NCBI GenBank assembly: GCA_013359445.1
Contig: JABWBV010000001.1
Location: 1-50,621, forward strand
Length of the DNA stretch: 50,621 bases
Direction: 5' to 3'
Origin: Anaerolineales bacterium
GTDB lineage: Bacteria; Chloroflexota; Anaerolineae; Anaerolineales; JABWBV01
How positions within the stretch are numbered: position 1 is the stretch's first letter; every line of letters begins with the position of its first letter. The notes beneath the pieces were generated by a model, which was given only the letters and a program-made list of their open reading frames with translations, was not told the DNA's origin and did not search any database. Shown here piece by piece: positions 11,315 through 42,286 of the stretch. Both the position numbers and the translations under genes were made by a program.

Positions 11315-14300
11315 ATGCAAAAACGCCTCACTTACATAGCCCTCCCTGTCCTTTTTGGGTTGTTGGCCGCCGCTTTCTTTTTCGCCGCGCCCGGATGGGT
11401 ACGCGCCGAATCAGTTGCCGCGCTCAACACCCCAGAAACCACCTATCACACCATCACCATCGATGGCGATTTGAGCGATTGGACCGCAGATGAACGCCTG
11501 CAAGCCGATGGCACCTACACCATGTACCTGACCTGGGACGCGACAAACGTGTTTGTCGGCCTGGAAGGGGCTTATCTTGGCGATACCGGCGGACAGGATA
11601 AAAGTTTCTTCATCTGTTTTGACACCAACCTGACCACCGGGTCCGGGGCCTCTGCCGACGGGTATGCCAATGTCACGTTTAACCCTGTGGCCTACGGCCC
11701 CGAACGCTGTTTTTACTTTGCAGGCGGGGGCGGTTGGCACGAATGGAATATCTGGAATGGCGCGTCCTGGGATTGGCAGGGCTGGCGCAATAATGGAAGT
11801 TACTACAACTGGCCGGGCAACCCCGCGGCCCAACCCGGCTCCGAACTGATCATCCCCCGCAGTGACCTGGGCAACCCGACCGCTTTTGGCGTCACCGCCT
11901 GGCTCACCGCCGAATCTGACCCCGCCGGGGGCAACATTCCCCTCGAAGCCGCCTGGCCCACCCCGAACGGGATCGGCGTGAACCCCACCTTCGCCCACTT
12001 CTATCACTTCCCCACCCTGGCGAGTGGCGTCAAACCCAACGCCTCTGTGCTGGCAGACCACCTGATCATCAACGAATTTTCGCCCAAAAACACCGAGTGG
12101 GTAGAAATTTACAACCCCACCGCCATCACCGTCACCCTCACCGGGTGGTACGCCGATGATGCCGCCTGTGGGACCGGCACCAGCCTGATCGGCGCGGTCA
12201 ACCTGGCACCCGGTGGATATTACGTCATCCTGGCCTCTGCCGGGGGCGACAACTTCACCTTCTCGAATGACGGCGGCACCGCCTACCTGTGCGACAGCAC
12301 CCACACCGAAATTGACCGCGTGGGTTACGGCAACGGTGGCGGGGCACCCCTGGCACACGGAACCAGCGAAGCCGTTGCCCGCACCCCCAACGGTTCCGAC
12401 ACCAACACCGATGCCCAGGATTGGAACTACGACACCTCCGCGTCACAAGGCACGCTCAATAACACCCCTGGCGTTTTGTTGGGAAGTAGCCTCGTGTTTA
12501 ACGAATTCGACAACTTCCCGGTCAGTGGAAATGATAAAGTCGAAATCTACAACCCCACCGGGCAAACCATTACCATGACCGGATGGTTCGTTTCCGATGG
12601 CGATGCCTACGCCCCCATTCTCACCAATGTGGCCGTTCAGCCCGGTGATTGGCTTGTTTTGGAAGAAACCGTGGATTGGACCATCACCATGGACTTTGGC
12701 TCACTTGATGTCGGGTATCTGTTTATGCCCGATGGAACCCGCGTCGATCAAGTCGGGTGGACCGGTGAATTTGAAGATAACAGCTTCCAACGTCTCCCCG
12801 ATGGTGCAGGCCCCTACAATGGCTATAACTGGGCCACCTCCGGCGGGGGCACCACCCTGTTCGACAACGCCCCCACCCTGGGCATTACCAATGTTCCCCC
12901 GCCCGTCCTGGCAATCAGCAAACAGGCCCCGGCCCTGGTCGGCGTCGGCGACGTGATCGAATATACGATCTGGGTCACCAACACCACCGTGGGGAGCATC
13001 GCCTCCAACCTCGTCATCACCGATCAGCTTCCGCTCAGCACCACCTACGCATACGGGGGAGCCTATGCCGGTGGCGTCGTCACCTTCGCCCCGGCGGATC
13101 CCCTCGCCTATGGCGAATCCATTAGCGCCACCTTCGGCGTCACGGTCACCGCCAACTTTGGCGACATCATCACCAACAATACCTACGCCGCAAGCGCGCT
13201 GGAGGCTGTAGGCCCCGTTTTCGGTGCCCCCGTCAACACCGCCGTTTCCGCGCTTGACCTCATCGTCAGCAAAACCGGGCCAACGTCCGGCTTCACCGGC
13301 GATGCACTCGTCTACACCATCGAGGTCGATAACGTCGGCATCGCCACCGCCGATACCGTGGTCGTGACCGACACACTCCCCCTCAGCACCACGTTTGTGG
13401 CCGCCTCCAGCAATGCCCTAACCACCACCGTGGCCGGGGGGCAGGTCGTTTGGGAGTTTAGCGCGCTGGTCTCCAACACCCTCGAAACCATCGCCCTGAC
13501 CGTCACCGTCGATAGCGGCGTCGCCAACAACACCATCCTCACCAACGCCGTCACCGCCACCACCCTCACCCCTGGCGACAACGAAGCCAACAACACCGAC
13601 TCCTGGAATACCACGATCTACGCCATTGTGCCCATCGCCACTGCCCGCGCAGGAAGCGACGGGGAAACGTTTGCCGTGGAAGGGCAGGTCATCTATACCC
13701 CCGGCACGTTTAACGGCTTTGGCTGGGCACTGCAAGACGCGTCGGGCGGGATTGGCGTGTTCTACAATTCTCCTCCAACCGTTGCCCGGAACGACGTCGT
13801 CCGCCTCATGGCGACCCGCGGCTCCTTTAGCGGAGAAGAACAATTCGCCGCCCCGGTCTTATTCTTTGCCAACTACGGCCCCGGTGCCCCTGTGACCCCC
13901 CTCTCCTATACCACCGGCGATGTCGCCGCGGGGCTAAGCGAAGGCTGGCTCGTTCACATCGAAGGCACCATCTCTGGCCTCACCTCCTGCTCCGGCAACC
14001 ACGACTTCTTCGTCGATGACGGCACGGGCGCTACCATCGTCTTCGTAGATGCAGATACCGGCATCAACCTGTGTAACCAGGGCGCGCAAGATGGCGACAC
14101 CGTCCGTGTCACCGGCTACAGTACCCAGTTCAACGCCGATTACGAGGTCAAACCCCGCGACCTGAACGATGTCCAACTCATTCAAGACATCCCCGCCCTG
14201 ACAAAAGACGCCCCCGCCCAGGTTGCGCCGGGTGAACTCTTCACCTACACCCTCACCCTCCAAAACTTCACCGGGAACACCCTCACCAGCGTCGTCATCA

Positions 14301-16693
14301 CCGATGTCGTCCCCACGGACGCCACCTTTGCCTACGCCCTCGACGGGGGCACGGAAACTGGCGGCGTCGTCACCTGGAACGTGGGCGACCTGGCCGATCA
14401 AAACAGCCTGTCCGTTCAATTCGCCGTCACCGCGACCGAAACCTCTCCGGCCTTCGTCCTCAACGAAACCTACGCCGTGCAGGCTTCCAACTACCCCACC
14501 ACCACCTACGGCACCCCGGTCAGCACCCTCGTACTTGATGCCATTGGCCCCAACTGCGGCGATCCTGCCGTGCCCATCCACGGCATTCAAGGCCTGGGGA
14601 GTGCCAGTTCTATCGTCGGCGTTGAACTCGCCATCGAAGGCGTGGTCGTCGGCGACTACCAAATCTCCACCAGTGGCTACGACGGTTTCTTCGTTCAAGA
14701 AGAAGATGCCGACGCCGATGCCAACCTCATGACTTCCGAAGGCATTTTTGTCTTTGAAGATGCCATCAATGTCCAGGTGGGCGATGTCGTCCGGGTATTC
14801 GGCACCGTGGCCGAATTCAACGGGTTGACCGAACTCAATCAAATTACCAATGTCATCGTGTGTAGCACTGGGGCCAGTGTCACGCCCGCCACCGTCACTC
14901 TGCCCGTGGCCGATCTGGACGAATGGGAGTGGTACGAAGGCATGTTGCTCAACATTCCCCACCCGCTCTACGTGACCGAAATCTTCGATCTGGGCCGCTA
15001 CGGCGAAGTCAGCCTGTCCGTCAACGACCGGATTGACCAACCCACCCAGGTCACCGACCCCGGGGCAAGTGCCCTGGCCCTGCAAGACCTCAACGACCGG
15101 AGCCGCGTCCAACTCAACGATGGACAAACCGGGCAAAACCCCGATCCCATCATCTACCCCTCCCCCGAACTGAGCGCCACCAACACCCTCCGCGGCGGCG
15201 ATATGCTCACCGACCTGACCGGGGTGCTGAACTTCAGCTTTGGCGCGTACCTGATCGAACCTGTCGGCGAGATCACCTTCACCCACAGCAACCCGCGCGC
15301 CGCCGCCCCCGATCCCTTGGACGGACGCCTCCAGGTGGCAAGTTTCAACGTGCTCAACTACTTCAGCACGATTGACGACGGCGTGAACGACATCTGCGGC
15401 CCGGCAGGCGACCAGGAATGTCGCGGGGCCGATAGCGCCGAAGAATTCACCCGCCAGCGTGACAAGATCATCAACGCCCTCGTGGCGATGAATGCCGATG
15501 TCGTGGGCCTGATCGAAATCGAAAACCACGCCGACGACGAAGCCGTAGACGACCTGATCGCCGGCCTGAACGCCATTGCAGGCGCTGGGACCTACGCCAA
15601 AATCAGCACCGGCACCATCGGTACAGACGCCATCAAAGTTGCCATCATCTACCAACCGGCCAATGTGACCCCCGTGGGTAACTTCGCCATCCTGGATGAC
15701 ACCTTTGATCCGAACTACCGCGACGACTACAACCGCCCGGCCCTCGCCCAAACCTTCCGCGAAAACACCACCGGCGAAAAGTTCACTGTGGTCATCAATC
15801 ACCTCAAATCGAAAGGCTCGGCCTGTGATAGCATCGGCGACCCCGACACCGGCGACGGGCAGGGCAACTGTAACCTGACCCGCCTCAGCGCCGTGCAGGT
15901 CATGCTCGCCTGGCTTGCCACTGACCCCACCGGGCAAGGCGACACGGATTACCTCCTCCTCGGCGACTTCAACTCCTACGCCATGGAAGACCCCATCGCT
16001 GCACTGGAAGATGGCGGCTATACCAACCTGAGTTCGGGATGGTATTCCTACGTCTTTGATGGACAATGGGGAACGCTGGACTATGCCCTGAGTAGCGCAA
16101 CGATGCTCACCCAGGTGGCGGATTTCACGATCTGGCACATCAACGCCGATGAACCCATCATCCTCGACTATAACGTGGAATTCAAATCTTCCCATCATGT
16201 CGAAAGTCTGTATAGTTCCGAACCGTACCGGGCCTCCGATCATGATCCTGTCATCATCGGCCTGAACCTGACCGAACTGCAAGCAGACTTCACCAGCAAC
16301 AGCCCGGTCACGCTTGGCGAACTGTCGGTCTTCACCAGCACGACAAACCAGAGCGGTGTCAGCTACGCCTGGGATTTTGGCGATAGTGGGACCTCCACCG
16401 CCGCCAACCCCACCCACCTGTATGCCAATGCCGGAACCTACACCGTCACGCTAGAGGTGTTCAACGGCTTCGCGACGGTTGTTGTAACCCAAACCTATGA
16501 GGTGCTCCCCCTGCCGCCGGTAGAAGACACCAACATCTACCTGCCCCTGATCATCAGGTCCGGGGAAACCAGCGCCGTCAAGAGCACCCCGCTCGCCCGC
16601 ACGGTGCCCGCGGGGTTGGGCTTTGGCGCGTTAGCGTTTGTCGGCATGGGGAGCCTGTTTATGCAGGGCCGCAAAACAAAACGCGAAAAGTAA
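11315..16693 (+). CDS. giant secreted ExeM/NucH-family extracellular nuclease (LTD x2, DUF11 repeats x3, EEP nuclease domain, PKD domain, C-terminal hydrophobic anchor)
   Basis: Signal peptide. Lamin-tail-domain blocks (LIINEFSPKNTEWVEIYNPT; LVFNEFDN..VEIYNPT). DUF11-type repeats (..VTDTLPLSTTF). EEP core (LQVASFNVLNYF .. DHDPV). PKD (YAWDFGDSGTSTAANPTHLYANAGTYTVTLEV). Terminal TM helix plus GRKTKREK. RBS GGAG lies 6 nt before the ATG. Confidence 0.85.
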   Translation: MQKRLTYIALPVLFGLLAAAFFFAAPGWVRAESVAALNTPETTYHTITIDGDLSDWTADERLQADGTYTMYLTWDATNVFVGLEGAYLGDTGGQDKSFFICFDTNLTTGSGASADGYANVTFNPVAYGPERCFYFAGGGGWHEWNIWNGASWDWQGWRNNGSYYNWPGNPAAQPGSELIIPRSDLGNPTAFGVTAWLTAESDPAGGNIPLEAAWPTPNGIGVNPTFAHFYHFPTLASGVKPNASVLADHLIINEFSPKNTEWVEIYNPTAITVTLTGWYADDAACGTGTSLIGAVNLAPGGYYVILASAGGDNFTFSNDGGTAYLCDSTHTEIDRVGYGNGGGAPLAHGTSEAVARTPNGSDTNTDAQDWNYDTSASQGTLNNTPGVLLGSSLVFNEFDNFPVSGNDKVEIYNPTGQTITMTGWFVSDGDAYAPILTNVAVQPGDWLVLEETVDWTITMDFGSLDVGYLFMPDGTRVDQVGWTGEFEDNSFQRLPDGAGPYNGYNWATSGGGTTLFDNAPTLGITNVPPPVLAISKQAPALVGVGDVIEYTIWVTNTTVGSIASNLVITDQLPLSTTYAYGGAYAGGVVTFAPADPLAYGESISATFGVTVTANFGDIITNNTYAASALEAVGPVFGAPVNTAVSALDLIVSKTGPTSGFTGDALVYTIEVDNVGIATADTVVVTDTLPLSTTFVAASSNALTTTVAGGQVVWEFSALVSNTLETIALTVTVDSGVANNTILTNAVTATTLTPGDNEANNTDSWNTTIYAIVPIATARAGSDGETFAVEGQVIYTPGTFNGFGWALQDASGGIGVFYNSPPTVARNDVVRLMATRGSFSGEEQFAAPVLFFANYGPGAPVTPLSYTTGDVAAGLSEGWLVHIEGTISGLTSCSGNHDFFVDDGTGATIVFVDADTGINLCNQGAQDGDTVRVTGYSTQFNADYEVKPRDLNDVQLIQDIPALTKDAPAQVAPGELFTYTLTLQNFTGNTLTSVVITDVVPTDATFAYALDGGTETGGVVTWNVGDLADQNSLSVQFAVTATETSPAFVLNETYAVQASNYPTTTYGTPVSTLVLDAIGPNCGDPAVPIHGIQGLGSASSIVGVELAIEGVVVGDYQISTSGYDGFFVQEEDADADANLMTSEGIFVFEDAINVQVGDVVRVFGTVAEFNGLTELNQITNVIVCSTGASVTPATVTLPVADLDEWEWYEGMLLNIPHPLYVTEIFDLGRYGEVSLSVNDRIDQPTQVTDPGASALALQDLNDRSRVQLNDGQTGQNPDPIIYPSPELSATNTLRGGDMLTDLTGVLNFSFGAYLIEPVGEITFTHSNPRAAAPDPLDGRLQVASFNVLNYFSTIDDGVNDICGPAGDQECRGADSAEEFTRQRDKIINALVAMNADVVGLIEIENHADDEAVDDLIAGLNAIAGAGTYAKISTGTIGTDAIKVAIIYQPANVTPVGNFAILDDTFDPNYRDDYNRPALAQTFRENTTGEKFTVVINHLKSKGSACDSIGDPDTGDGQGNCNLTRLSAVQVMLAWLATDPTGQGDTDYLLLGDFNSYAMEDPIAALEDGGYTNLSSGWYSYVFDGQWGTLDYALSSATMLTQVADFTIWHINADEPIILDYNVEFKSSHHVESLYSSEPYRASDHDPVIIGLNLTELQADFTSNSPVTLGELSVFTSTTNQSGVSYAWDFGDSGTSTAANPTHLYANAGTYTVTLEVFNGFATVVVTQTYEVLPLPPVEDTNIYLPLIIRSGETSAVKSTPLARTVPAGLGFGALAFVGMGSLFMQGRKTKREK

Positions 16694-24465: not shown

Positions 24466-24540
24466 GGTGGGGTAAATATAGCATAAAAAAGCATGGTTGA
24501 TAGTGAAGATGTTTGGATATGAGAAAGAGAGGCACACTCG

Positions 24541-27619: not shown

Positions 27620-28798
27620 TTATATACCTTCTTTACCTTCTTTCCCAATAATATCCCTCGCAATCACAATCCGTTGGATATGCGAGGTGCCTTCGTAAAT
27701 CTGTAACCCTTTGATATCGCGGTAGTGGCGTTCAACGGGGTATTCGTTGCTGTAGCCGCGCCCGCCGTGGAGGAGGACGGCGTTGGAGGCGGCTTTCACG
27801 GCGATTTCGGTGGCGTAGAGTTTCGCCATCGAGGTTTCGCGGGTGGTGGGAAGTGCCTTTCCTGCGGAAAGGGCGTCCTTCATGGTGGCCGCCTTGTAGA
27901 CCAGCAGGCGAGCGGCCTCGATTTCCGTTGCCATATCGGCGATGGTGGCTTGAATCATCTGAAAATCGCCGATCCGCTGACCGAACGCGCGCCGTTTGCG
28001 GACAAAATCCACGCTCGCATCCAAACACGCCTGCGCGATGCCCAACGCCCCCGCCGCGACGCCCAGCCGACCGTGGTCGAGGGCAGACATGGCGATTTTG
28101 AAACCGTCACCTTCCTGGCCGAGGAGGGAGCTTTTGGGAACGCGTAGGGATTGGAGGGAAATGTGGGCGTGGTCGGAGGCGCGGTGGCCCAATTCCTTTC
28201 CAGGCATCTTTTCTCGAACAAAGCCGGGGGTGTTCGTTTCGACGAGGAAGGCGCAAATGCCTTTGTGTTTTTTCGCCCGATCCGTGGTGGCGAAGACGAT
28301 GGCGAGGTCAGCGATGCCGCCGTTGGTGATCCAGATTTTTTCGCCGTTGAGGATGTACTCGTCCCCGTCGAGGGTGGCGGTGGTTTCGAGGTTGCCCGCG
28401 TCCGATCCGGCGTTCGGCTCGGTCAGGCAGTAGCACCCGATGATTTCCCCTGTCGCCAACCGGGGAAGGTACCGTTGTTTTTGCGCTTCTGTGCCCCAAT
28501 CGTTGATACACAGACTGACCAGCGACCCATGCACGGCCAAAAATCCCCGCACGGACGAATCCGCCCAGCCCAATTCTTCGGAGATCAGGGTGTAGCTGAG
28601 GTAGTCCATCCCCGCACCGCCGTACTCGGGTGCGATGGTTCCGGCGAGGAATCCGAGTTCGCCCATGCGTTTGACGAGGTGGAGGGGGAAGATGCCGGTT
28701 TCATCGGCCTCGCGGGCGAGGGGGGCGACTTCGTCGCGGGAGAAGGTGCGGGCGAGGGTTTGGAGGGAGAGTTGGGAGGGGATGAGGGAGAGGCGCAT
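27620..28798 (-). CDS. acyl-CoA dehydrogenase
   Basis: 392 aa. CLTEPNAGSD and the C-terminal YEGTSHIQRIVIARDI. Confidence 0.9.
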   Translation of the reverse strand: MRLSLIPSQLSLQTLARTFSRDEVAPLAREADETGIFPLHLVKRMGELGFLAGTIAPEYGGAGMDYLSYTLISEELGWADSSVRGFLAVHGSLVSLCINDWGTEAQKQRYLPRLATGEIIGCYCLTEPNAGSDAGNLETTATLDGDEYILNGEKIWITNGGIADLAIVFATTDRAKKHKGICAFLVETNTPGFVREKMPGKELGHRASDHAHISLQSLRVPKSSLLGQEGDGFKIAMSALDHGRLGVAAGALGIAQACLDASVDFVRKRRAFGQRIGDFQMIQATIADMATEIEAARLLVYKAATMKDALSAGKALPTTRETSMAKLYATEIAVKAASNAVLLHGGRGYSNEYPVERHYRDIKGLQIYEGTSHIQRIVIARDIIGKEGKEGI

Positions 28799-28837
28799 TT
28801 AATTTAATACTGTTCAGATTTCAAATTAACCTAAAAG

Positions 28838-30625
28838 TTAAATTAAATTTCGCTGTATGGCTATATTGTTTGACTTTAAGAAGTTGTTTACATCTGTGAA
28901 GACATTTAAAAATAAAGGTGTTCCAGAAAATGAAAGTGGTGAAACTGGTCCAATTGTCATAAACGAATATTCCCGTGATGCAATGTCAAAAGATGAATGT
29001 GGATCCCTGAATTGCTGATAGAGTTTTAGATACTCACCTTTTCCACCTACAAGTTCTTGAAGTTTCTTATATTCTGCCCCCATGCTTAACCCAAAGCCGA
29101 AGAATGAAATTCGGAGCTGTTGCACAATCTCATTGTCAAGGCTGGATAGGGTTTGGCTTAGAAACATCCAACCCAAGCCATATTTGCGAGTTGTTCGAAC
29201 TGCGTCAATTAAATTGGTCTTTATCCTTTGTTTTCTCTCATTATTAGCAATTCTTTCTTGAGGGGCAAGTCTATGAGCTTCATCCAGAACAACAAGAGTA
29301 TTCAAACTCACATCGTTTTGATAAGCATCCTCTGCCTTTCTGAGCAATACACCAAGAATAGCATCTATCAAAATTGGTTTTATTTTTTCGTCCCATACGC
29401 CAGAAGTAATATCTGATGGTTTTTTTGATAAATCTACAACTATCAAAGGTCTACTGCCAGTTTTAGGAATAGATAGAGCCTGTTGTACAATTTGATCAAT
29501 AGACAACTTACCTTCTCCCTCAGAGAAAAATCTAATGACCTTATCCCACTTTTCCTTTAGTGGAGAGAATTGCGATGATCCTAGTTTTTGTTTTGCTTCA
29601 TCAATAAAACTTTGAACTCTTTCAATCCCGCTTGTTCCACCATATATTCTATGAATGTTTGAATGAATATGATCCAACATTGCTACAAAAGCCATGTCAT
29701 CTAAATTTTTGAGTTTAAATTTATTGTTATTGGCTTTGAAAAAATCCACTACATAATTTGCCGATGTTGCTTGATAATCAGTCGATTTAACACCCATTTC
29801 TGCAAATAGATCGAACTCAAGAAGTAATTCGCCAAGCAATTCCCATGTTCCAAGTCGAAATCGTGACAAATCATAAACCTCAAATTTTCGCCCAAGTCCC
29901 ATAAGCACATTAGGATGTAAAACGTTCCCAATAGATAGCTTTGTTTGCGCGTTATTCAACCCTAGAGAAAACTCGCCTTGTGGGTCGAAAATGAACAACC
30001 CCATTTGACTATGACGTGCATACCCTAAAACAATCATCTTCGCCAAAACTGATTTTCCTGAACCGGTTTTACCAAAAACACCAATATGATACGACTCTCC
30101 AGCCCCTTCTATACCACGTTCAAAATGTTTAAACCATAAAGGCAACATAGGTTGTGAGCCATACACATTGCCCAGATAAAAAATTTGTGATTGATATGGT
30201 GCAAGTAACTCTCTCAATACTCCATCATCAGCTAAATAAATAGGTGTTCCAGTAGCAGGTACAGTTCCTAATATGCTTGGGCGATAATTTCCTTGTTCAT
30301 TTGCGAAAACTGCACTTATTATCATTTCTCCTTGATGAGTGTCTTGACGTTCACTAACCGCATCAACCCGCCCTCGTTGGCGTATCAAACTTCTCATAGT
30401 GGGATCTTCGTGCCAAATATTGCGTAACTTGATTTCAGTGATCTGACCTAGGGCATAATTTCTATGGCTATCTTGAAGATAGCCGAAGAATGCCAACTCA
30501 CCAACAAGCTTTTTAGTAACCGAACGAGCCATGATATCAAGTGCAAGTTCGGTTGTCGAAGAGGGTGACCCAATCACTCCAATTCCCTCGGCCTTACTGA
30601 CCAATTCATCTAATTTATCTGCCAT
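28838..30625 (-). CDS. HerA-like FtsK/HerA-superfamily ATPase (DUF87-type)
   Basis: N-terminal barrel-like segment (IGVIGSPSSTTELALDI..LVGELAFF). Walker A GVFGKTGSGKS (30051-30073). Walker B LVVLDEAHRL. 2-nt gap to the upstream NurA-like gene. Strongly AT-rich. Confidence 0.8.
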   Translation of the reverse strand: MADKLDELVSKAEGIGVIGSPSSTTELALDIMARSVTKKLVGELAFFGYLQDSHRNYALGQITEIKLRNIWHEDPTMRSLIRQRGRVDAVSERQDTHQGEMIISAVFANEQGNYRPSILGTVPATGTPIYLADDGVLRELLAPYQSQIFYLGNVYGSQPMLPLWFKHFERGIEGAGESYHIGVFGKTGSGKSVLAKMIVLGYARHSQMGLFIFDPQGEFSLGLNNAQTKLSIGNVLHPNVLMGLGRKFEVYDLSRFRLGTWELLGELLLEFDLFAEMGVKSTDYQATSANYVVDFFKANNNKFKLKNLDDMAFVAMLDHIHSNIHRIYGGTSGIERVQSFIDEAKQKLGSSQFSPLKEKWDKVIRFFSEGEGKLSIDQIVQQALSIPKTGSRPLIVVDLSKKPSDITSGVWDEKIKPILIDAILGVLLRKAEDAYQNDVSLNTLVVLDEAHRLAPQERIANNERKQRIKTNLIDAVRTTRKYGLGWMFLSQTLSSLDNEIVQQLRISFFGFGLSMGAEYKKLQELVGGKGEYLKLYQQFRDPHSSFDIASREYSFMTIGPVSPLSFSGTPLFLNVFTDVNNFLKSNNIAIQRNLI

Positions 30626-30627
30626 TT

Positions 30628-31770
30628 TTATACTCCTGACTCTGTTCTATAACCATGCAAACTCATAAATATCTCGCTAATGTCACCCTGATATTTTTCT
30701 GCCAGACGTTGATTTGCAACTTGTCGAAATGCAGGGACAGATTTAGCAAGGTGTTTTACCATTCTATCTGCCATATATAACGGGTAAGGTTCCATAATTG
30801 CCGCTGACCCACATTGATGTTCGACAGCCTTTAAAACAGTACTCAATCGAGCAGGGGTTTGTGCTATAGACTGTGCTAACTCTACTCTCAATGCTGGCAA
30901 CCATGTAAACGGGCGATAATATATTACATTTACATTTTTCAAAAGACTTGTTACTTTATGGACAAGTTCCTCGATTTCTACACTTTCGCCCGTCTTTACT
31001 GGTTTTGTGTTGATATGCCAGGGGGCTTTCGGTGAACTTAAAAGCATTGGCTTTGTATATTCGCCCGCTTCTAAAAGCATACTCAACAACCCTCTATCAT
31101 CATATGCTTCAGGCCATTTCATTGCTTCCCCGATTTCTCGTTTTGTAGTGTATTTAGGCATTGCGACCCAATAATGATCTGAACGGCGAGCTGTTAAAAT
31201 TTCTTTGTAAGCCTCAAGGCTAGCTCGAATGGTTTTAGTCAACTCAACTGATATTTTTAAATCTGGCGCATCCTCAAGTTTGCTTAGGGCTTGATTGAAA
31301 AAAATGGTAGGAGTTGTAAGTGAACCATCTAAAAAAACAACTTCATGAGGCGCATTTTGTGCTAGTTTCAATTCCATCCCCATCATTATCCCACGTAGAA
31401 TAGATGATGATTCTGCTTCGTGTGCCTCAGTATCAACATAAACTAGGTGTTGAGGTTCAGGCCAATATCTATTTTCTGATGGAGGAGTTAAACCTTCGAC
31501 TGCTACAGCACCTACAGCTACCAAATCAACGGCTAATAGTCTTTCTATTGCTAATGAGCCATCAACACCACAGCAAGTTGGTATAGGAACAAGTGGTAGG
31601 TTTGCAACTTTTTGAACTACGCCTTTTTCGATTAATTGAGAACGCCAAATTGCCTTGTTATCTCTGATATTGTCAAAAGACTTTAACAAAGCTTGGCTTA
31701 TTTCATCGGTTCTTTCTAAAACTTCTTGGACAAGAGCGGCAGGTAACTCGGCAAATGGATTTTCGTTCAT
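30628..31770 (-). CDS. NurA-like 5'-3' nuclease
   Basis: CCGVDGSLAIE (NurA-type acidic DGS motif near the N-terminus); about 380 aa; sits immediately upstream of the HerA-like ATPase. ATG at 31770 (MNENPF..) lies 4 nt after the upstream stop. The ORF from 31818 overlaps. Confidence 0.7.
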   Translation of the reverse strand: MNENPFAELPAALVQEVLERTDEISQALLKSFDNIRDNKAIWRSQLIEKGVVQKVANLPLVPIPTCCGVDGSLAIERLLAVDLVAVGAVAVEGLTPPSENRYWPEPQHLVYVDTEAHEAESSSILRGIMMGMELKLAQNAPHEVVFLDGSLTTPTIFFNQALSKLEDAPDLKISVELTKTIRASLEAYKEILTARRSDHYWVAMPKYTTKREIGEAMKWPEAYDDRGLLSMLLEAGEYTKPMLLSSPKAPWHINTKPVKTGESVEIEELVHKVTSLLKNVNVIYYRPFTWLPALRVELAQSIAQTPARLSTVLKAVEHQCGSAAIMEPYPLYMADRMVKHLAKSVPAFRQVANQRLAEKYQGDISEIFMSLHGYRTESGV

Positions 31771-31774
31771 AGGA

Positions 31775-32917
31775 TTAGTTTTCAGAAATGGGTTTAGTAA
31801 TAGCAAGACTCTTTGCAATATCTTGATTATTCCAGTTGTGCCAGCTATCTACTCTTTCAGAACGACCATAAAGCCATCTTTCCCTCCAAAACTCTGCGAG
31901 GCTCTCGAAAGGTAAATTGCGATAAATTGGTGTTTCTGTTTTGCCATTTAGGTAGTCATCCAAATTATCAATCAATCGAAATAGAAATGCTTCACGCTTA
32001 ATTCCATGTCTGAGTATATCCCCTGAAACGCCAATATGATCTAGAGTACGCCTAATTAGTTGCCATGTACGTTTTGGACCAGTGCCGTACCCACCTTGTA
32101 TCGAAATATCTTCGGACTCCAAATATTGTTTAAAAGCAGGATAAAGTCGCTGTAGATGGAAATTCCCATACCCATTTGTGTATCCAATAGATTCTGCAAT
32201 TAATAAATCTTGGTATTTAAGTCTATTGTAAATAGAACTTCGGCCAAAAGCACTTGTAGTTGTTAAGGCTACCAATTCAGCGGGTATCACCCGGTCTTCC
32301 ATTTCGGTTTTCCGCCCCAAATAAATTTTGCGATAAGCCTCTCGCACTTCATTAGTAACTGTAGCCAAAGCTACAAGTTTTCCGCCTAGTAAGCGATTGT
32401 AAGGAGGCAACGCCCCTAAAGTAAAAATATCCATTGTCTGATTTACCAATTCTGTTTTTCTCCCATATGGATAGTTGAACAATCGGTCTCTTGCAGGAAA
32501 CCCAATTGGAGGAGACTGGAGCCCAAATATACCCATCAGTTTTCCATTACTATCATCAATGATCAAATACCTTAATCGGCGTCCAAATCCAAATGAATAT
32601 GGAATTGACCAGTAATAACGAGCTAGGCGAAACAAATCGTTGTGCCATTTTTCGCACACTTGAATTATTGTAGGCTTTATAGATTTAGGAGATATATCCT
32701 GCCCATTTGCAAAAAAGTGAATATAACGGGGGAGTTTAAAATTGATCCAGTCTTGTGCCTTTTCAAGTTCAATTTCTCGCGACGGTTTGTGGAGTAATTT
32801 TATGGATTCCTTCTCCGGTGCAGGTGGAATTAAGTCTCCTTTCTCATCAAAAGAGAACCCTAATGATTCTAGTTCCTCGCTAATAAGTTCTCTAAGCTCT
32901 GTTGCTGTAATTGTCAT
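31775..32917 (-). CDS. DUF4338-like protein (DruA-like)
   Basis: The core GRRLRYLIIDDSNGKLMGIFGLQSPPIGFPARDRLF .. NRLLGGKLVALAT .. TTTSAFGRSSIYNRL follows the DUF4338 pattern as I remember it (xLRYLv..G.l.all.f.saa..l..RD..iGW ... E.F.Gt.Y.a.nW). Recognised by eye only. Confidence 0.55.
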   Translation of the reverse strand: MTITATELRELISEELESLGFSFDEKGDLIPPAPEKESIKLLHKPSREIELEKAQDWINFKLPRYIHFFANGQDISPKSIKPTIIQVCEKWHNDLFRLARYYWSIPYSFGFGRRLRYLIIDDSNGKLMGIFGLQSPPIGFPARDRLFNYPYGRKTELVNQTMDIFTLGALPPYNRLLGGKLVALATVTNEVREAYRKIYLGRKTEMEDRVIPAELVALTTTSAFGRSSIYNRLKYQDLLIAESIGYTNGYGNFHLQRLYPAFKQYLESEDISIQGGYGTGPKRTWQLIRRTLDHIGVSGDILRHGIKREAFLFRLIDNLDDYLNGKTETPIYRNLPFESLAEFWRERWLYGRSERVDSWHNWNNQDIAKSLAITKPISEN

Positions 32918-32948
32918 GCTAGGTATTTCTCTTTGGCAAGAACCACTT

Positions 32949-33287
32949 TCATTTCATTACCCGATAAATTGTCGCATTCATCCGCTCTTCCCGATCATTC
33001 TCCACAAGATTCTTCCAGTCCACCTCAATATCATACTTTAAAGCCTCGATTTCATCCATCTTTTGTTGAATCTTTGCAGTTGTTACCAACACACCCTCTT
33101 TATTTTTTATGATCTGATTCTTCAATTCATCTATTTCAGAATTACGGACATTCAACTTCAATAACGCCGTTTCTTCTCCGTCCAGAAAATCATACCACTC
33201 TTGAAGTTGGGCCTGTTCTCTCGGCTTTAGTTCATCCCCCATCACGGCTTTGTTGTGTAGTTTTTGTCCGATTTCGTTTGTTATCAT
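32949..33287 (-). CDS. small coiled-coil protein, unknown function (first gene of the AT-rich operon)
   Basis: 112 aa, charged heptad-like sequence (EIDELKNQIIKNKE..KIQQKMDEIEALKYDIE). 31 nt upstream of the DUF4338 gene. Confidence 0.5.
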   Translation of the reverse strand: MITNEIGQKLHNKAVMGDELKPREQAQLQEWYDFLDGEETALLKLNVRNSEIDELKNQIIKNKEGVLVTTAKIQQKMDEIEALKYDIEVDWKNLVENDREERMNATIYRVMK

Positions 33288-33317
33288 CAGGGAACCTGCC
33301 TTTTTCGTGCTAAAAAA

Positions 33318-33326
33318 ATTCTAGCA
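33318..33326 (-). promoter_or_regulatory. extended -10 element (TGcTAGAAT) upstream of the AT-rich operon
   Basis: Minus strand reads gtgTGCTAGAATttttttagcacgaaaaaggcaggttccctgATG. It lies within a GTGCTA..TAGCAC inverted repeat. Confidence 0.35.
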
Positions 33327-33331
33327 CACTT

Positions 33332-33736
33332 TTACTCCCCTATCACCGCCACCCCTTCCAACTCCACCAACGCCTCGTCCAAATACAACCCCTTCACCTC
33401 AAACAGCGCCATGACCGGGTAATACTCCCCAAAAAACGCCTTCATCACCTTGCCCAACGCCTTCAAATTCGCTTTGTACAACGCCCGGTCGGTGGTGAAG
33501 ATGTTCAACTTCACAATGTCCTGCATCGTGCCACCTGCCGCTTCAACCACGGCTTGCAAGTTGCGGAGGACCTGTTCGTATTGCGCGACGATGTCACCGG
33601 GCGCGGCAATCGCGCCGTTCGCATCGCTGGCATCCTGCCCGGCGAGCCAGAGAATCTTGCCGCCATCGGTCAAAATGCCGTGGTTGAATCCGCGGGGGGG
33701 AGGGAGAGAGGGGGGAGTAATAATTTGTTTTGACAT
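33332..33736 (-). CDS. ridA: RidA/YjgF family enamine/imine deaminase
   Basis: 134 aa. Typical PPRGFNHG..GQ.., ..NL.AVVEAAGG.., ..LVELEGVA. Confidence 0.8.
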   Translation of the reverse strand: MSKQIITPPSLPPPRGFNHGILTDGGKILWLAGQDASDANGAIAAPGDIVAQYEQVLRNLQAVVEAAGGTMQDIVKLNIFTTDRALYKANLKALGKVMKAFFGEYYPVMALFEVKGLYLDEALVELEGVAVIGE

Positions 33737-34685: not shown

Positions 34686-36419
34686 TCATCCATCCAGCGT
34701 GAAATAAAACGCCGCCCCCTGTCCTACGCGGCCCTCGGCCCATACCCGGCCCCCATGCCGGTGGATGATACGTTGCACCGTAGCCAAACCAACGCCGGTC
34801 CCTTCAAATTCATCTGCCCGGTGCAACCGTTGAAACGGGACAAAAAGCTTTTCGGCATACGTCTGTTCAAAACCTGCCCCATTATCTCTGATAAAAAAGA
34901 TTTTCTGTCCGTTCTCTTGTTTCAGGCCAAACTCGATTTTTGCCTCTTGTTGATACCGGGTAAATTTCCACCCATTTCTCAGGAGATTTTCCAAAACGGC
35001 CCGAAGTAAACGGGCGTCCCCCTGGACACAAACGCCCCCGACTACGGACCAATCCACTTTCCGACTCGGATCGGCTTGTTGCAAATCTGCGAGGATTTCT
35101 TGAGCCATTTTCGATAAATCCACCTCAGTTTTTTGGATTTGGGTGCGGGAGACTTGAGAAAGGGCCAGCATTCCGTCAATTAATTCTTTCATTTGGGCAC
35201 TGGCACTCTTAATGCGGCGGAGATAGTTTTGTGCATCCGGCGTCATCCCTTCTGTCTCCGCCAACAAGATGGTAGAAAATCCTTCCATGGCGCGCAAAGG
35301 CGCACGCAAGTCGTGAGAAACCGAATAGCTAAAGGCCTCCAATTCCTGGTTCGCAATTTCAAGTTGGCGGGTGCGTTCATGGAGGGTTTGTTCCATTTGT
35401 TTACGTTCAGAAATATTGCGAACCTGAATCATGCGGCCTGCAAAAGCCTGATTCTTATGGTAAATGGGCGTGACTTCCACTTCAAAAGATTGGAAATCAT
35501 CTCCCAGATAACCCTGGACCTCGGTCTTAATTTCTCTTACATCGCCGAAGCGCGCCAGTAAATCGGAAAACTGAGCAAAAGCTTTTGCGGCAGGTTGCCC
35601 AATCACCTCACCATAAGATTTATGGATGAGTTTGAGCGCCACAGGATTGATGTCCACCACCCGATTTTTCAGGTCTATCACAATCATGGCCGTTGGCATG
35701 ATTTCCACAAGAAGATCGCGGGCAATGGGCACGATGTCGAAAATCTGGAAACGAAACAACCCCCATGTAATAAACAGATTTCCAATTGCGAAAGTCAGCG
35801 GAGCCGTATCTCGTTGATAACTCAGGGTAATGTTTGCCATGGTCAAGCCCCCTCCCACCATTGGGGCCGCGAGACCGCATAAGATCAGAATGGCCTGTAA
35901 CCGGAACAAGCCCTTTTCCCGAAGAGATTTTACGATGAGCACACCAATTCCACCCAAGCCTAACCCATAGGCATAGACAAATGTGAGCCAGATAAAGAGA
36001 GAAAAATCGTAGGTCAGATTAGAAAAAGGGGCGCCGGGGATCAAGAAGGCAGTTGGGCGGAACCATCCATGAAATTGATCTGTATAAATAAACAGTGTAG
36101 AGACCAGGGGGAACAAACTTAATCCAACGAGAAACTTTTGGGGATTCGCGGGAAGCCGCCCCGTAAATTTCAGGGCAAAATAAAACCAACTTTCCGTCAC
36201 GATGAACATGGCGACAAATTGCAAATTATCCCAAAAAACTTTTCCGGCAAGCGTATCGTTTGTTAGCTCAAAAATATACCCATACGTCCAAAGCGCTTCC
36301 CCGAGACAAAGCACGACAAACGCGGAGGCACTTTCTATCTCTCTCTGTCTCCACGCGTAAAAAGCAATCCCCAAGGAGATCATCAGTGAAATCAGGTATG
36401 GAATCAGATAAGAAAACAT
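34686..36419 (-). CDS. sensor histidine kinase (N-terminal 7TM sensor, PAS, HisKA, HATPase_c); no cognate response regulator nearby
   Basis: About 7 TM helices, then a PAS-like segment, H-box SHDLRAPL, and G boxes DNGAGF and GTGVGLA. GC is lower than in the flanking genes. Confidence 0.85.
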   Translation of the reverse strand: MFSYLIPYLISLMISLGIAFYAWRQREIESASAFVVLCLGEALWTYGYIFELTNDTLAGKVFWDNLQFVAMFIVTESWFYFALKFTGRLPANPQKFLVGLSLFPLVSTLFIYTDQFHGWFRPTAFLIPGAPFSNLTYDFSLFIWLTFVYAYGLGLGGIGVLIVKSLREKGLFRLQAILILCGLAAPMVGGGLTMANITLSYQRDTAPLTFAIGNLFITWGLFRFQIFDIVPIARDLLVEIMPTAMIVIDLKNRVVDINPVALKLIHKSYGEVIGQPAAKAFAQFSDLLARFGDVREIKTEVQGYLGDDFQSFEVEVTPIYHKNQAFAGRMIQVRNISERKQMEQTLHERTRQLEIANQELEAFSYSVSHDLRAPLRAMEGFSTILLAETEGMTPDAQNYLRRIKSASAQMKELIDGMLALSQVSRTQIQKTEVDLSKMAQEILADLQQADPSRKVDWSVVGGVCVQGDARLLRAVLENLLRNGWKFTRYQQEAKIEFGLKQENGQKIFFIRDNGAGFEQTYAEKLFVPFQRLHRADEFEGTGVGLATVQRIIHRHGGRVWAEGRVGQGAAFYFTLDG

Positions 36420-38049: not shown

Positions 38050-40202
38050 GTTGACATTACACACAAATCCGCCCGGCCACCTGCCAGGATGGTATTCACC
38101 TCCCCACTTGTGGTCAAATGCCCTCCGAGCAAGATGGGGAGACAGGTAGCGTGGCGGAGGCGTTCGGCGTGGGGGGTGAGGTAGCCGGAGGCGTAGAGGG
38201 AGTCGTCATCGGGGACGGTTTGCCCGGCGAGGGGTTGGAGGAGGTCGAGGTGGGGGTGGAAGGCGCGGGCGATTTCGAGGGAGTCTTCGAGAATGAGGCC
38301 GCCTTTCGCCCAGTCGTCTACGTTGAGGGCGATGGCGAGTGGCTTATCCCACACGGCACGGACGGCAGTGAGGATTTGGAGGGGGTAGCGGAGGCGGTTT
38401 TCCAACGTTCCACCGTATTCGTCGGGGCGGTGGTTGGTGAGGGGGGAGAGGAAACTGGCGAGGAGGTAGCCATGCGCCATGTGGAGTTGCAGGAGGTCGA
38501 ATCCGGCTTGATGGGCGAGGCGGGCGGCGCGGACGAAGGATTCGCAGACGGCGGCGAGGTCGTCGGGGGTCATTGCGCGGGGGGTGGGGCTGTGGCGGTG
38601 ATAGGGCAGGGGGGAGGGGGCGAGGAGCGGCCAGGGATCGCGGATCGGGCGGTCTATCCCCGCGCGAGCCGGGTGGACGGCGCCGCGGCGTCCCGCGTGG
38701 TTGAGGAGGATGCCTGTTTTTTGTCCCCGCGCGTGGGCGGCATCCACGAACGTTATCCACGTTGCGAGGTGGATTTCATCGTACAGGCAGGGATCGTCGG
38801 GAGTGATCCGCCCTTCGGGGCTGACGGCGACGGGGGGAGTGAGGAGGAGGCCTGCGCCGGAAGCGGGGTTGCGGGAGGCGAGGCGGTTGGGGAACATGAC
38901 ACCGCGCAAGGGGAAGGGGGTGTGGAGGGGTGGGGGGGCGGCGGAATTTCCGGCGGAATTTCCGGCAAAGGTGCGGTCAACGGTTTCGACGTATTGAGGG
39001 TCGCGGGTGCGGAGGTTGTCGTAGTGGATACGCCCGGAGCGGGTGAGGAGTTGGAAGGCGAAGGGTTGGGGGGCAAGATTCGTGTAGCGTTTGAGGGTTT
39101 CAAAATAACGCTGGCTGACGAGGGCGGCGGCTTGCAGGGATTCGGCGCGGGGACGGCGTTCGCTTTCGTAGACGCGGAGGGCGGTGTTGACGTTGGGGGC
39201 GGTTTCGAGGGCTTGTGCGAGGGCGATAGCGGCGTCCATGGCGAGTTTGGTGCCTGATCCGATGGAGAAGTGGGCGGTGTGGGCGGCGTCGCCGAGGAGG
39301 ACGAGCGGGGTGCCTTCAATCGTGTGCCGCCATTTTTTGCAGACGACGTGGACGAAGTTGACCCAGAGGGAGCGGTTGGAGAGGAGGCGCGCTTTGCCGA
39401 GAAAGTCGGAGAAGAGATTTTGGCAGTAGGCGATGGAGTCGGCCTCGGTCGCTTTGTCCAGTCCGGCGCGTCGCCACACGTCTTCGGCACATTCGACGAT
39501 GAAGGTGCTGGTGGTGCCGTCGAAGGGGTAGGCATGGACTTGAAAGAGGCCGTGTTCGTTTTCTTTGAAGAGGAAGGTGAAGGCGTCGAGCAGGCGGTCG
39601 GTGCCGAACCAGATATATTTGGTCTGGCCAAGGGTGAGGGTGGGTTGGAAGACGTCGGTGAACTGTTTGCGGACGGCGGAGTTGACCCCGTCGGCGGCGA
39701 TGATCAGGTCGTAGTCGGCGGGCTGGACGGGGAAGGGGGTGACGCCGGGGGTGTAGGTGCGGACGGTGGAGATGGTGTTGAGGAGGGTTTCGGGGGAGGT
39801 TGGTTGGTTTGTTGGTGGGTTGGTTGGTTGAGGGGGGAGGATGGCCTCGTGTTCGAAGGTCATTTGGATGCCGAGTTCGCGGCAACGATCCTGCAGGATT
39901 TGGAGCAAGCGGCGGCGGGACATGCCCGCGAAGTCGTGGCCGTCGGCGCGGATGATTTCGCCTTTGTAGTGGATGTCTATCGCCGTCCAGGTGACGAATT
40001 CTTTGGTGATACGTTCGTAGGAGGGGAAGTCCGCTTCACGGAAGGTGTTGATGGTGCGGTCGGAGAAGACGACGCCCCAGCCGTAGGTCGCGCCGGCGGG
40101 GTTGCGTTCGACGATGTGGATGTCGTGGGCAGGGTTGGCTTTTTTGAGGAGGATGGCGGAGTAGAGGCCACCGGGGCCTCCGCCGAGGATCAATATTTTC
40201 AT
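38046..40202 (-). CDS. bifunctional FAD-monooxygenase / Old-Yellow-Enzyme-type reductase (2-aminobenzoyl-CoA monooxygenase/reductase or salicylyl-CoA 5-hydroxylase type)
   Basis: N-terminal ILILGGGPGGLYSA plus GDAAHTAHFSIGSGT (aromatic-ring hydroxylase). C-terminal HMAHGYLLASFLSPLTNHRPDEYGGTLENR (OYE TIM barrel). 718 aa. Confidence 0.75.
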   Translation of the reverse strand: MKILILGGGPGGLYSAILLKKANPAHDIHIVERNPAGATYGWGVVFSDRTINTFREADFPSYERITKEFVTWTAIDIHYKGEIIRADGHDFAGMSRRRLLQILQDRCRELGIQMTFEHEAILPPQPTNPPTNQPTSPETLLNTISTVRTYTPGVTPFPVQPADYDLIIAADGVNSAVRKQFTDVFQPTLTLGQTKYIWFGTDRLLDAFTFLFKENEHGLFQVHAYPFDGTTSTFIVECAEDVWRRAGLDKATEADSIAYCQNLFSDFLGKARLLSNRSLWVNFVHVVCKKWRHTIEGTPLVLLGDAAHTAHFSIGSGTKLAMDAAIALAQALETAPNVNTALRVYESERRPRAESLQAAALVSQRYFETLKRYTNLAPQPFAFQLLTRSGRIHYDNLRTRDPQYVETVDRTFAGNSAGNSAAPPPLHTPFPLRGVMFPNRLASRNPASGAGLLLTPPVAVSPEGRITPDDPCLYDEIHLATWITFVDAAHARGQKTGILLNHAGRRGAVHPARAGIDRPIRDPWPLLAPSPLPYHRHSPTPRAMTPDDLAAVCESFVRAARLAHQAGFDLLQLHMAHGYLLASFLSPLTNHRPDEYGGTLENRLRYPLQILTAVRAVWDKPLAIALNVDDWAKGGLILEDSLEIARAFHPHLDLLQPLAGQTVPDDDSLYASGYLTPHAERLRHATCLPILLGGHLTTSGEVNTILAGGRADLCVMST

Positions 40203-40777
40203 GGGTTCGCCTCCGCCAATGCTTTTTCTAACAAATCACTTGTTTTCAAGCGGATTGCCCAAGTTTGCAAATACGCTAAATCCAAATTCCCGCGTTGGAT
40301 CTTCATCACGTTGATAACATCACGCCATTGACGTTCGGACACTTCCCCACCCATTCGATACCAGTTGAATTTCGCAAGAATGTTATCTTCTGCGCTGGAA
40401 AAATAAGCTGTGCGAACAGGTTCATCCGCTAACGTTTGTTGAATACGCCGCTCGAATTGTGTCTGATCAAAAGGGCGTTGTTGGTTCGTGAAAATATCCA
40501 CCTTAAACATGGTTTCACGGTGAATGATATTGAAACTGCTACGTCGAACAATTGCCTCTTTGATCATTTCATCATCCACATAAAAGGTGTTTTCGAGGGC
40601 GGAAACGAAACTTTCTACATGCGCCAACTGAATATCTGCGATGATGTCCACATCCATCGTTGCCCGCGCCACGCCATGAATAGCGGTTGCCAATGAACCG
40701 CCGATGAAATAGGGGATGTTTAAGCGTTCAAACACATCCGACACTTGTAAGGTGACTTCGATAGGTTCAGGCAACAT
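40199..40777 (-). CDS. nucleotidyltransferase-fold protein (GGS..HG..R.T.DVD motif)
   Basis: FIGGSLATAIHGVARATMDVDII is a minimal-NTase / AbiEii-like signature. AT-rich. Its TGA overlaps the ATG of the flavoprotein gene (ATGA). Confidence 0.45.
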   Translation of the reverse strand: MLPEPIEVTLQVSDVFERLNIPYFIGGSLATAIHGVARATMDVDIIADIQLAHVESFVSALENTFYVDDEMIKEAIVRRSSFNIIHRETMFKVDIFTNQQRPFDQTQFERRIQQTLADEPVRTAYFSSAEDNILAKFNWYRMGGEVSERQWRDVINVMKIQRGNLDLAYLQTWAIRLKTSDLLEKALAEANP

Positions 40778-41027: not shown

Positions 41028-41094
41028 ATTTTATTAGAGGAGAATGGCGGGATACACGCCGCTAAGGGTGAGGTTTTTTATAAGGAGACGATGA

Positions 41095-42267: not shown

Positions 42268-42286
42268 AATTCTCCTCTGTTACTTA

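Follow-up and report, generated by a model that had tools for sequence, protein, structure and literature searches.

We analysed a 50,621-nucleotide (nt) stretch of an Anaerolineales genome (contig JABWBV010000001.1, positions 1 to 50,621 of the forward strand; hereafter the window), in which a gene of the DruA family (DUF4338; positions 31775-32917) is followed on the minus strand by genes for a NurA-family nuclease and a HerA-family ATPase. The same three genes recur together amid unrelated flanks in many other genomes, and DruA, NurA and HerA almost certainly form a conserved, co-inherited unit. We read this unit as a three-gene defence cassette with NurA-HerA as its effector, a reading to which we give a probability of about 0.6. 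The defence would most likely be directed against phages or other invading DNA, and the cassette is probably an undescribed anti-phage system. Related loci are cited below by L number.

The unit is strongly conserved. The DruA of the window has 1888 relatives at E <1e-5 among 90%-identity protein clusters, and the best 120 of them are each about 380 amino acids (aa) long and 58-79% identical. On the contigs that encode six of the DruA relatives and one NurA relative, DruA-NurA-HerA was present amid unrelated flanking genes in six of the seven. Scanning one genome for each GTDB species gave 79 loci, which were classified by tblastn; since peptide patterns of the close clade were used, the counts that follow apply to this DruA lineage, not to the DUF4338 family at large. 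Complete DruA→NurA→HerA triads make up 50 of the 79 loci, with a further nine triads cut by a contig end and three that have decayed; the rest comprise four loci with DruA and a DruE-like helicase only, four canonical Druantia I loci, three in which DruA stands beside another type of HerA operon, and six that are uninformative. Whether complete, cut or decayed, the triad is thus present in 62 of the 73 informative species-representative loci. An independent scan of metagenome contigs that was anchored on NurA gave an adjoining DruA-family gene in all 76 informative loci, directly upstream and on the same strand in 74. The first-pass annotation of this DNA had asked what fractions of DUF4338 genes lie next to DruE and next to HerA/NurA; these scans, within one DruA lineage, establish that the pairing is no singleton. 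Carriers are also seen as hundreds of 90%-identity protein clusters and more than 60 species genomes.

The architecture of the unit is tight, and its parts diverge together. The DruA-NurA junction is mostly -4 nt and the NurA-HerA junction mostly +2 to +3 nt. Pairwise identities are correlated for DruA and NurA (Spearman 0.67), DruA and HerA (0.63) and, most strongly, NurA and HerA (0.81), and the catalytic motifs of the cassette's genes are under purifying selection. Variants on this plan include a permuted order, NurA-HerA-DruA, in L042; a DruA in divergent orientation relative to NurA in L159 (43% identity); DruA together with divergent NurA-HerA lineages in L024 and L068; and NurA-HerA together with a divergent DruA in L093, L111 and L159. 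L111 was a candidate for a NurA locus without DruA, and was ruled out as such because it carries a very divergent DruA that Pfam alone recognises (112 bits). Cultured or isolate carriers of the triad are Thermanaerothrix solaris, T. daxensis GNS-1, Chloroflexus sp. MS-G and Thermogemmatispora tikiterensis T81 (loci L034, L039, L046 and L057), the last of these (L057) with an apparently frameshifted NurA gene; carriage in Caldilinea is known from source names (proteins P0383 and P0365 among the carrier entries).

The assignment of the first gene as DUF4338/DruA, made in the first-pass annotation, is secure. Its product matches Pfam PF14236 over the full length of the model (263.3 bits, E 3e-78, cutoff 27; positions 2-297 of 297) and the PADLOC DruA model over residues 6-372 (343.8 bits), and it is 37% identical over 380 aa to a DruA encoded on a Nitrosococcus watsonii plasmid within a canonical DruA-DruB-DruC-DruE operon. 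The observation that no other Druantia component accompanies it in the window was likewise borne out: tblastn searches of the window with DruB and DruC (queries from L008) and with two DruE sequences gave a best E of 0.36. Among the eight open reading frames (ORFs) of at least 500 aa in the window outside the cassette, the seven that were scanned against Pfam contain no helicase and no DEAD or MZB domain, and the eighth (34686..36419, 577 aa) reads as a sensor histidine kinase from its sequence. The one ORF of DruE size (11315..16693, plus strand, 1792 aa) encodes a secreted lamin-tail (LTD)/DUF11/PKD/EEP protein and no helicase. Near it lies a 608-aa EEP-domain protein (18255-20081, plus strand), also not a helicase, and the products of these two genes may be secreted or surface nucleases or phosphatases. 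The earlier statement that DruA always accompanies DruE in Druantia types I-III does not hold, since DruA is a component of type I only; type III consists of DruH and DruE, and accessory genes vary from type to type (PMC7251935; bioRxiv 10.64898/2026.05.12.722862).

NurA, HerA and a 112-aa ORF had been named as the neighbours of DruA, and all three are as described there. The match of the NurA ORF to Pfam NurA (PF09376) is close to the cutoff (23.4 bits; cutoff 21). When a profile of its homologues was searched against the PDB, the sole match was P. furiosus NurA (3TAI; E 0.24), located at the catalytic DGS motif; the first DGS motif aligns with the catalytic D51 region of that enzyme. An AlphaFold2 (AF2) model (predicted local distance difference test, pLDDT, 72) gave NurA chains as all of its top eight Foldseek matches, the best being 9x1m_G of the T. 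kodakarensis HerA-NurA complex (E 1.4e-3, probability 1.0). D86-G-S, E149, D164-G-S, H268 and D351 (396-aa numbering) are invariant in 21-58 homologues. Because the profile, structural and active-site tests agree, the identification of NurA holds despite its weak Pfam score. Since the gene caller reports a product of 380 aa, the true start is probably the ATG at 31770, 4 nt past the DruA stop, and not the TTG at 31818.

The third protein matches the Pfam DUF87/HerA central domain at 53.3 bits (cutoff 23.2), and its Walker A (G185KTGSGKS192) and Walker B (D448E449) motifs are retained in 97% or more of 52 homologues. Its start codon lies 2 nt past the NurA stop. The best sequence matches in the PDB are distant HerA-type chains, 9c1m ('ATP-binding protein', 27.7 bits) and 8wiv ('Helicase HerA central domain-containing protein'). 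Against the curated NCBIfam models of anti-phage HerA, NF042943 and NF042944, it scores 32.5 and 15.6 bits, short of the cutoffs of 850 and 800, and against the NCBIfam repair-HerA models 20 bits, short of cutoffs of 800-970. By extension from known HerA-NurA biochemistry, HerA and NurA are predicted to form a 6:2 complex with ATP-dependent exonuclease activity; the sequences themselves show adjacency, translational coupling and correlated divergence.

For DruA itself, a GNAT-like fold is plausible from structural modelling. The core of GNAT enzymes has the topology beta1-alpha1-alpha2-beta2-4-alpha3-beta5-alpha4-beta6. The AF2 model (pLDDT 85.8, predicted TM-score, pTM, 0.85) retrieved from the PDB 48 GNAT or histone acetyltransferase (HAT) folds among its top 50 Foldseek matches, including p300/CBP, GCN5, Naa60, AAC(6'), Hat1 and TmcA. 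All of these matches have E >0.01, with a best E of 0.016 and TM-scores of about 0.2-0.6, so that, in the comparison with GNAT folds proposed in the first-pass annotation, support for the GNAT-like fold comes from the ranking of the matches, not from their significance. DUF4338 has also been called a GNAT domain in a published analysis (PMC10853773). The conserved core of the protein spans residues 100-260 and includes R175-LLGGK180 and S222-AFGRSSxYNR232, motifs that are at least 97% conserved among homologues; residues 1-90 and the C-terminus vary, as expected of a specificity or partner-binding region. In the model, R175-L-L-G-G-K180 lies between the strand 161-169 and the helix 173-185, after the fourth strand, and the second motif follows the fifth. 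The first motif resembles motif A of GNATs, which binds the pyrophosphate of acyl-CoA and follows beta4 (R/Q-x-x-G-x-G/A), and departs from it at the last position. The stretch LPPYNRLLGGK may resemble motif A of MYST acetyltransferases, a likeness that the searches did not confirm. The polar residues D121, Y199, R113, R143, D144, K180, Y230, R232, H304 and R308 are invariant or nearly so, Druantia I DruAs included, which argues that DruA is an enzyme whose chemistry is constant across its partners.

DruA-like folds exist in viruses too, as is evident from strong matches of the model to viral structures in BFVD (E 4.5e-17 to 2e-7). These include uncharacterised proteins of the giant viruses Faunusvirus, Yasminevirus and Dasosvirus (best E 4.5e-17) and a fragment of an uncultured tailed phage (E 3e-8), and GNATs occupy the weak tail of the same search. 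No close DruA relative was found in 2.9 million viral contigs, and a search of PHROGs gave a marginal match only.

The proposal that DUF4338 is a portable module, attached to different effector machines, was upheld by partner swaps among close relatives of the window's DruA: DruA is such a module, because close relatives pair with a DruE-like helicase, with two other HerA modules, with FtsK/DndFGH-like or GHKL proteins, or with nothing. In a simple neighbour-joining tree of DruA, those linked to NurA-HerA form one large clade, whose sister group consists of four Dehalococcoidia DruAs linked to a DruE-like helicase together with the DruA of L082; the canonical Druantia I DruAs fall outside both groups. 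In the four Dehalococcoidia chromosomes (L074 9818-16490, L075, L078 9983-16992 and L081 3807-11026), a DruA 45-51% identical to that of the window adjoins a DEAD+MZB (DUF1998) helicase of 1811-1923 aa, which it precedes except in L081, where it follows. These loci lack DruB, DruC and DruD, and the pair looks like a minimal DruA-DruE form of Druantia.

Other relatives stand beside HerA operons of a different kind. In L049 (4851-11119) and L065 (4892-11128), whose DruAs are nested within the NurA-HerA clade, DruA is divergent from a four-gene operon that encodes proteins of about 398, 226 and 424 aa and ends in a different HerA of about 580 aa; in L082 (9905-15051), a convergent HerA (560 aa) and a 765-aa protein lie beside DruA. 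Classification of these three loci as solo DruA was rejected in view of the HerA operons alongside. Their non-HerA partners have no family matches, barring a weak zinc-ribbon match of the ~398-aa protein in L049. Among the candidate solo-DruA loci, only L014 and L015 are truly without HerA. The orphan DruA of L014 (8001-9143; also L015) is 64% identical to that of the window and nested within the NurA-HerA clade. It occupies a single low-GC kilobase in a GC-rich region with SSB, ParA, RHH, PD-(D/E)XK and PIN genes, no remnant of NurA or HerA was found there, and the gene might serve a plasmid-like element as an 'orphan modifier'.

DUF4338 also occurs in larger fusion proteins (660-1050 aa on plasmids) that are more distant from the window's DruA. 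One of these, plasmid-borne in Roseivivax (L010 4554-10780), lies beside two HATPase_c_3 (GHKL/MORC-like) ATPases, and others, in a haloarchaeon (L011 8639-19558) and Hymenobacter (L184 8188-18729), belong to DndFGH-like operons with FtsK/SpoIIIE ATPases. Fusions of DndF with a GNAT-like DUF4338 domain have been published (PMC10853773), and the portable nature of the domain was thus in part on record already.

The cassette behaves like horizontally mobile accessory DNA. Its GC content is below that of its flanks in 35 of 42 loci (mean 7.9 points) and never more than 3 points above. Carriers belong mainly to the Chloroflexota (Anaerolineae, Chloroflexus, Roseiflexus, Thermoflexus, Thermogemmatispora, Ardenticatena and Dehalococcoidia), and others to the Planctomycetota, Bipolaricaulota, Armatimonadota, Bacteroidia and Verrucomicrobiales and to a cyanobacterium. 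About ten phyla are represented overall, including three known from one metagenome-assembled genome (MAG) each, Desulfovirgula (Bacillota), Syntrophobacterales (Desulfobacterota) and Thermoproteota; phylum assignments from single MAGs may reflect binning errors. The flanks of the triad differ between loci, and the 142 nearest neighbour proteins, from genes called mechanically, are heterogeneous, so that there is no conserved fourth partner. DNA methylases are the commonest neighbour family, with five of the 142 proteins. The closest relatives of the cassette (77-78% identity) adjoin a type IIG restriction-modification gene and HicAB, and other relatives adjoin a MethyltransfD12/SacI pair, an AAA_15/21 ATPase, a STAND NTPase or PIN-domain genes. 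At L024 (13144-17912) and L072 (5299-9661), an SbcC/Rad50-like ATPase (AAA_23 with an SbcC Walker B motif) and an ORF of about 400-440 aa adjoin the triad. Two triads lie on different contigs of one Gemmatales MAG (L038 and L040), and a triad and a DruA with the four-gene HerA operon lie on different contigs of an Ardenticatenaceae MAG (L018 and L049).

The cassette shares features with several known systems and coincides with none of them. Like Druantia type I, it begins with DruA, homologous over its full length, and ends with a large DNA-translocating enzyme. It differs from that system in that DruE (a YprA/MrfA-type superfamily 2 helicase with DUF1998/MZB), DruB, DruC and DruD are all missing, and the downstream machine is instead a ring ATPase of the FtsK-HerA superfamily with the RNase H-fold nuclease NurA; because the defining component, DruE, is not present, it is not a Druantia system. 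It resembles the HerA-NurA end-processing complex of archaea and Deinococcus-Thermus in its adjacent, coupled genes, its Walker motifs, the acidic residues of NurA and the top structural matches of the NurA model, which are NurA chains of HerA-NurA complexes. The sequences are, however, very divergent (23 bits for NurA; 20 bits against repair-HerA cutoffs of 800 or more), the cassette includes DruA as an obligate third gene and is borne on islands, and no Mre11/Rad50 was seen in the operon, SbcC-like neighbours occurring at two loci. The anti-phage systems SIR2-HerA and DUF4297-HerA likewise join a HerA ATPase to an effector enzyme in a compact mobile operon, and the solved sequences nearest to the HerA of the cassette are the distant HerA-type chains 9c1m and 8wiv, which may or may not belong to anti-phage complexes. 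In the cassette the effector is NurA, not SIR2 or the Cap4-like nuclease DUF4297, and there are three genes instead of two.

DndFGH-type modules with a DndF-fused DUF4338 (PMC10853773; L011 and L184) combine the same domain with an FtsK-HerA-superfamily ATPase in a system of several genes that acts against invaders. There, DUF4338 is part of a 700-1050-aa fusion, the DndH/FtsK-like ATPase has about 1500 aa and NurA is missing, whereas the DruA of the cassette is a stand-alone protein of 380 aa. Finally, type I and III restriction-modification systems, with their modifier and ATP-dependent translocating nuclease, offer a likeness in that a transferase-fold protein and an ATP-driven nuclease may divide the labour, and in that the transferase-like gene can be an orphan and the nuclease is never alone; given the GNAT-like fold and the lack of an S-adenosylmethionine methyltransferase and of a recognisable specificity subunit, the likeness is no more than an analogy. 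Of the cassette, PADLOC v2 picks up DruA alone, with no matching NurA model and weak matches for HerA, and full-text literature searches found no description of a DUF4338-NurA-HerA system. We class the cassette as a putative defence module of the HerA-nuclease kind combined with a Druantia component.

How such a cassette might work is suggested by what is established for its relatives. A HerA hexamer moves double-stranded DNA into a NurA dimer, and the authors of PMC12977600 suggest an antiviral role. HerA is, moreover, a scaffold and activator of nucleases in anti-phage systems already known (PMC11291478), and the only context to which DruA has been tied experimentally is the defence system Druantia I. 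By extension, six HerA subunits would assemble into a ring that uses ATP to drive double-stranded DNA, starting at a free end, into the NurA dimer, which would degrade both strands, so that linear or broken invader DNA would be destroyed. DruA, the module that is joined to the DruE helicase in Druantia type I, would act upstream of the nuclease. In the version that we prefer, DruA would mark self, either host DNA or a host factor, and NurA-HerA would spare what is marked, much as modification does its part in a restriction-modification pair; in the alternative, DruA would sense infection and license NurA-HerA. The data do not firmly discriminate between the two, and we consider self-marking less likely than not, and more doubtful than the defence function itself.

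Three observations favour self-marking. DruA can be an orphan, as in L014, but in none of the informative metagenome loci does this NurA subfamily lack a DruA-family gene. Orphan modification without lone restriction is the asymmetry typical of modification and restriction genes. Moreover, DruA variants are swapped onto a constant NurA-HerA (L093, L111 and L159), and expression of Druantia I is reported to give a motif-specific PacBio modification signal with no recognisable methylase in the system (bioRxiv 10.1101/2024.04.14.589459); that modification activity might be that of DruA. A more specific version is that DruA is an acyl transferase that would place a non-methyl mark of as yet undefined chemistry on host DNA or a DNA-bound factor and so spare self from an attack that is independent of ends. 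We regard this version as improbable.

Several points weigh against defence, against a DruA enzyme or against both. Defence, complex formation and DruA activity are inferred from sequence. Neighbouring genes are only modestly enriched in defence genes; housekeeping genes make up the majority of the 142 nearest, and the locus counts are those of a single DruA lineage. No acetyltransferase came up when DruA was searched against the PDB by sequence or by profile, and the GNAT scores are individually weak. The PacBio result comes from a preprint that does not itself assign the activity to DruA, and neither NurA nor HerA has an evident domain that could read a DNA mark. To our knowledge, a GNAT enzyme that modifies DNA would be unprecedented.

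A role in housekeeping repair has to be considered, in which NurA-HerA would resect or degrade broken chromosomal ends, as reported for Deinococcus and archaea, and DruA would be a regulatory acetyltransferase. Source databases name the homologues 'DNA double-strand break repair nuclease NurA', many triads lie amid housekeeping genes, the SbcC/Rad50-like neighbours in L024 and L072 recall archaeal mre11-rad50-herA-nurA operons, and Deinococcus NurA-HerA contributes to recombination and repair, according to work cited in PMC12977600; the last two points also count against defence as such. Nevertheless, repair seems unlikely for a unit that has a foreign composition in 35 of 42 loci, is spread patchily over unrelated phyla, is duplicated in some MAGs (L038 and L040) and decayed at other loci (L054 and L085), and whose nearest relatives adjoin restriction-modification and toxin-antitoxin genes. 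In addition, the same DruA lineage replaces NurA-HerA with a Druantia-type helicase, and the 20 bits of HerA stand against cutoffs of 800-970 in the curated repair-HerA models. The cassette could instead be a selfish addiction module, with NurA-HerA as a toxin that attacks the chromosome unless DruA continuously counters it, perhaps through acylation of the nuclease or of DNA; the cassette would persist by post-segregational killing. Such a module would account for the finding that NurA-HerA is never without a DruA-family gene in our sample and DruA can occur alone, for the position of the antidote gene, first and translationally coupled, and for the small, mobile, low-GC islets, which resemble the restriction-modification and MazF islets of the same window (see below). 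Addiction does not exclude defence, however, as restriction-modification systems combine the two; no evidence points to toxicity, and HerA-NurA needs DNA ends, of which an intact circular chromosome has none (PMC12977600), so that we consider a purely selfish addiction module, too, unlikely.

HerA/FtsK-type pumps drive conjugation and viral genome packaging, and the cassette might accordingly handle the DNA of a mobile element (packaging, transfer or replication) rather than confer immunity. HerA does match the PHROG terminase large subunit (40 bits) and VirB4/TrbE models weakly, the cassette is mobile, and DruA-like folds occur in giant viruses and an uncultured phage. We consider this very unlikely, since neither the window nor the called genes of the related loci inspected show an integrase, transposase, relaxase, capsid or replication gene alongside the cassette, such genes are likewise missing from the 25 commonest families among the 142 nearest neighbours, no close relative appeared in the 2.9 million viral contigs and the flanks are unrelated between loci. 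A chance juxtaposition, in one genome, of a stray DruA and an unrelated NurA-HerA pair, for which nothing speaks beyond the absence of other Druantia genes, is refuted by more than 130 independent loci that share the arrangement with overlapping genes, and its probability is negligible.

In the window, the cassette lies in a sharply bounded low-GC islet of four co-directional ORFs, in the order 112-aa ORF, DruA, NurA and HerA (Table 1). On either side GC content is ~0.55-0.66; near 28.8 kb it falls from 0.66 to 0.30, and near 33.3 kb it rises again. The islet has no integrase gene, as there is no long ORF between the cassette and its flanking genes, and no direct or inverted repeats better than chance flank it. 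The candidate promoter has nine of 12 consensus matches and a TG extension in a consensus scan; promoter and terminator matches in the region are as many as expected from shuffled sequence, which leaves it a candidate only. The 112-aa ORF is indeed present in the operon and shares the low GC content of the islet, but it lies outside the conserved unit: it has no family match in Pfam, PADLOC, NCBIfam or PHROGs, no homologue was found by tblastn beside any of the 79 related genome loci, and the nearest relatives of the cassette lack it. It was therefore ruled out as a fourth component and is a local passenger.

Table 1. The DruA-NurA-HerA islet of the window and its flanking genes.
Feature	Position	Strand	Remarks
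HerA-family (FtsK-HerA superfamily) hexameric ATPase/translocase	28838..30625	-	595 aa
NurA-family nuclease	30628..31770	-	380 aa counted from the ATG start; the mechanical TTG ORF reaches 31818
DruA-like protein (DUF4338, GNAT-like core plausible)	31775..32917	-	380 aa; first conserved gene of the cassette
112-aa ORF	32949..33287	-	Within the islet, upstream of DruA; particular to this locus
Sigma-70-like promoter match, weak	33318..33346	-	Upstream of the 112-aa ORF; candidate operon promoter
Low-GC islet with the cassette	28800..33320	.	GC ~0.39; set between acyl-CoA dehydrogenase and RidA/L-PSP genes
Acyl-CoA dehydrogenase	27620..28798		Islet-flanking gene; housekeeping
RidA/L-PSP	33332..33736		Islet-flanking gene; housekeeping

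Other islets of the window hold two type II restriction-modification pairs and a MazF/RHH/Hypoth_Ymh group. At 22625-24537 (minus strand, GC ~0.50), an N6_N4 DNA methylase gene (337 aa, 170 bits) overlaps a 300-aa ORF without a family match, and the two are probably a type II restriction-modification pair. A second low-GC islet, of four genes (40199-43091, minus strand, GC 0.37-0.42), encodes a 198-aa nucleotidyltransferase-like protein (weak matches only), a 390-aa Hypoth_Ymh protein (96 bits), a MazF/PemK toxin (92 bits) and an ORF that marginally resembles an RHH antitoxin, and looks like a toxin-antitoxin or abortive-infection islet. In the third (47751-49711, GC ~0.44), the gene for a BglII-like restriction endonuclease (67 bits) is divergent from that for an N6_N4 methylase (175 bits). 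Because of these islets, the contig can be described as housekeeping genes among which small, compositionally foreign defence islets are scattered.

Druantia type I has been known since 2018, and DruA, DruB, DruC and DruD have no assigned function in the literature searched. The cassette offers a simple setting, DruA with a two-protein effector of known biochemistry and structures, in which the role of DruA is directly testable. If it protects against phages, it would be a widespread defence system with cultured thermophilic Chloroflexota among its carriers, and would give a concrete antiviral context to bacterial NurA-HerA, such a role having so far been proposed only for the archaeal complex. 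If DruA does place a novel mark, this would explain the modification signal of Druantia I without a methylase domain; DruA-NurA-HerA, DruA-DruE and the DndF fusions would be restriction-modification-like systems with a new modification chemistry, and orphan DruAs, whether carried by mobile elements or by viruses, would serve counter-defence as 'orphan modifiers'. The swapping of effectors within one DruA lineage, among a DruE helicase, NurA-HerA, other HerA modules and an FtsK-like DndH, bears on the modular assembly of defence systems.

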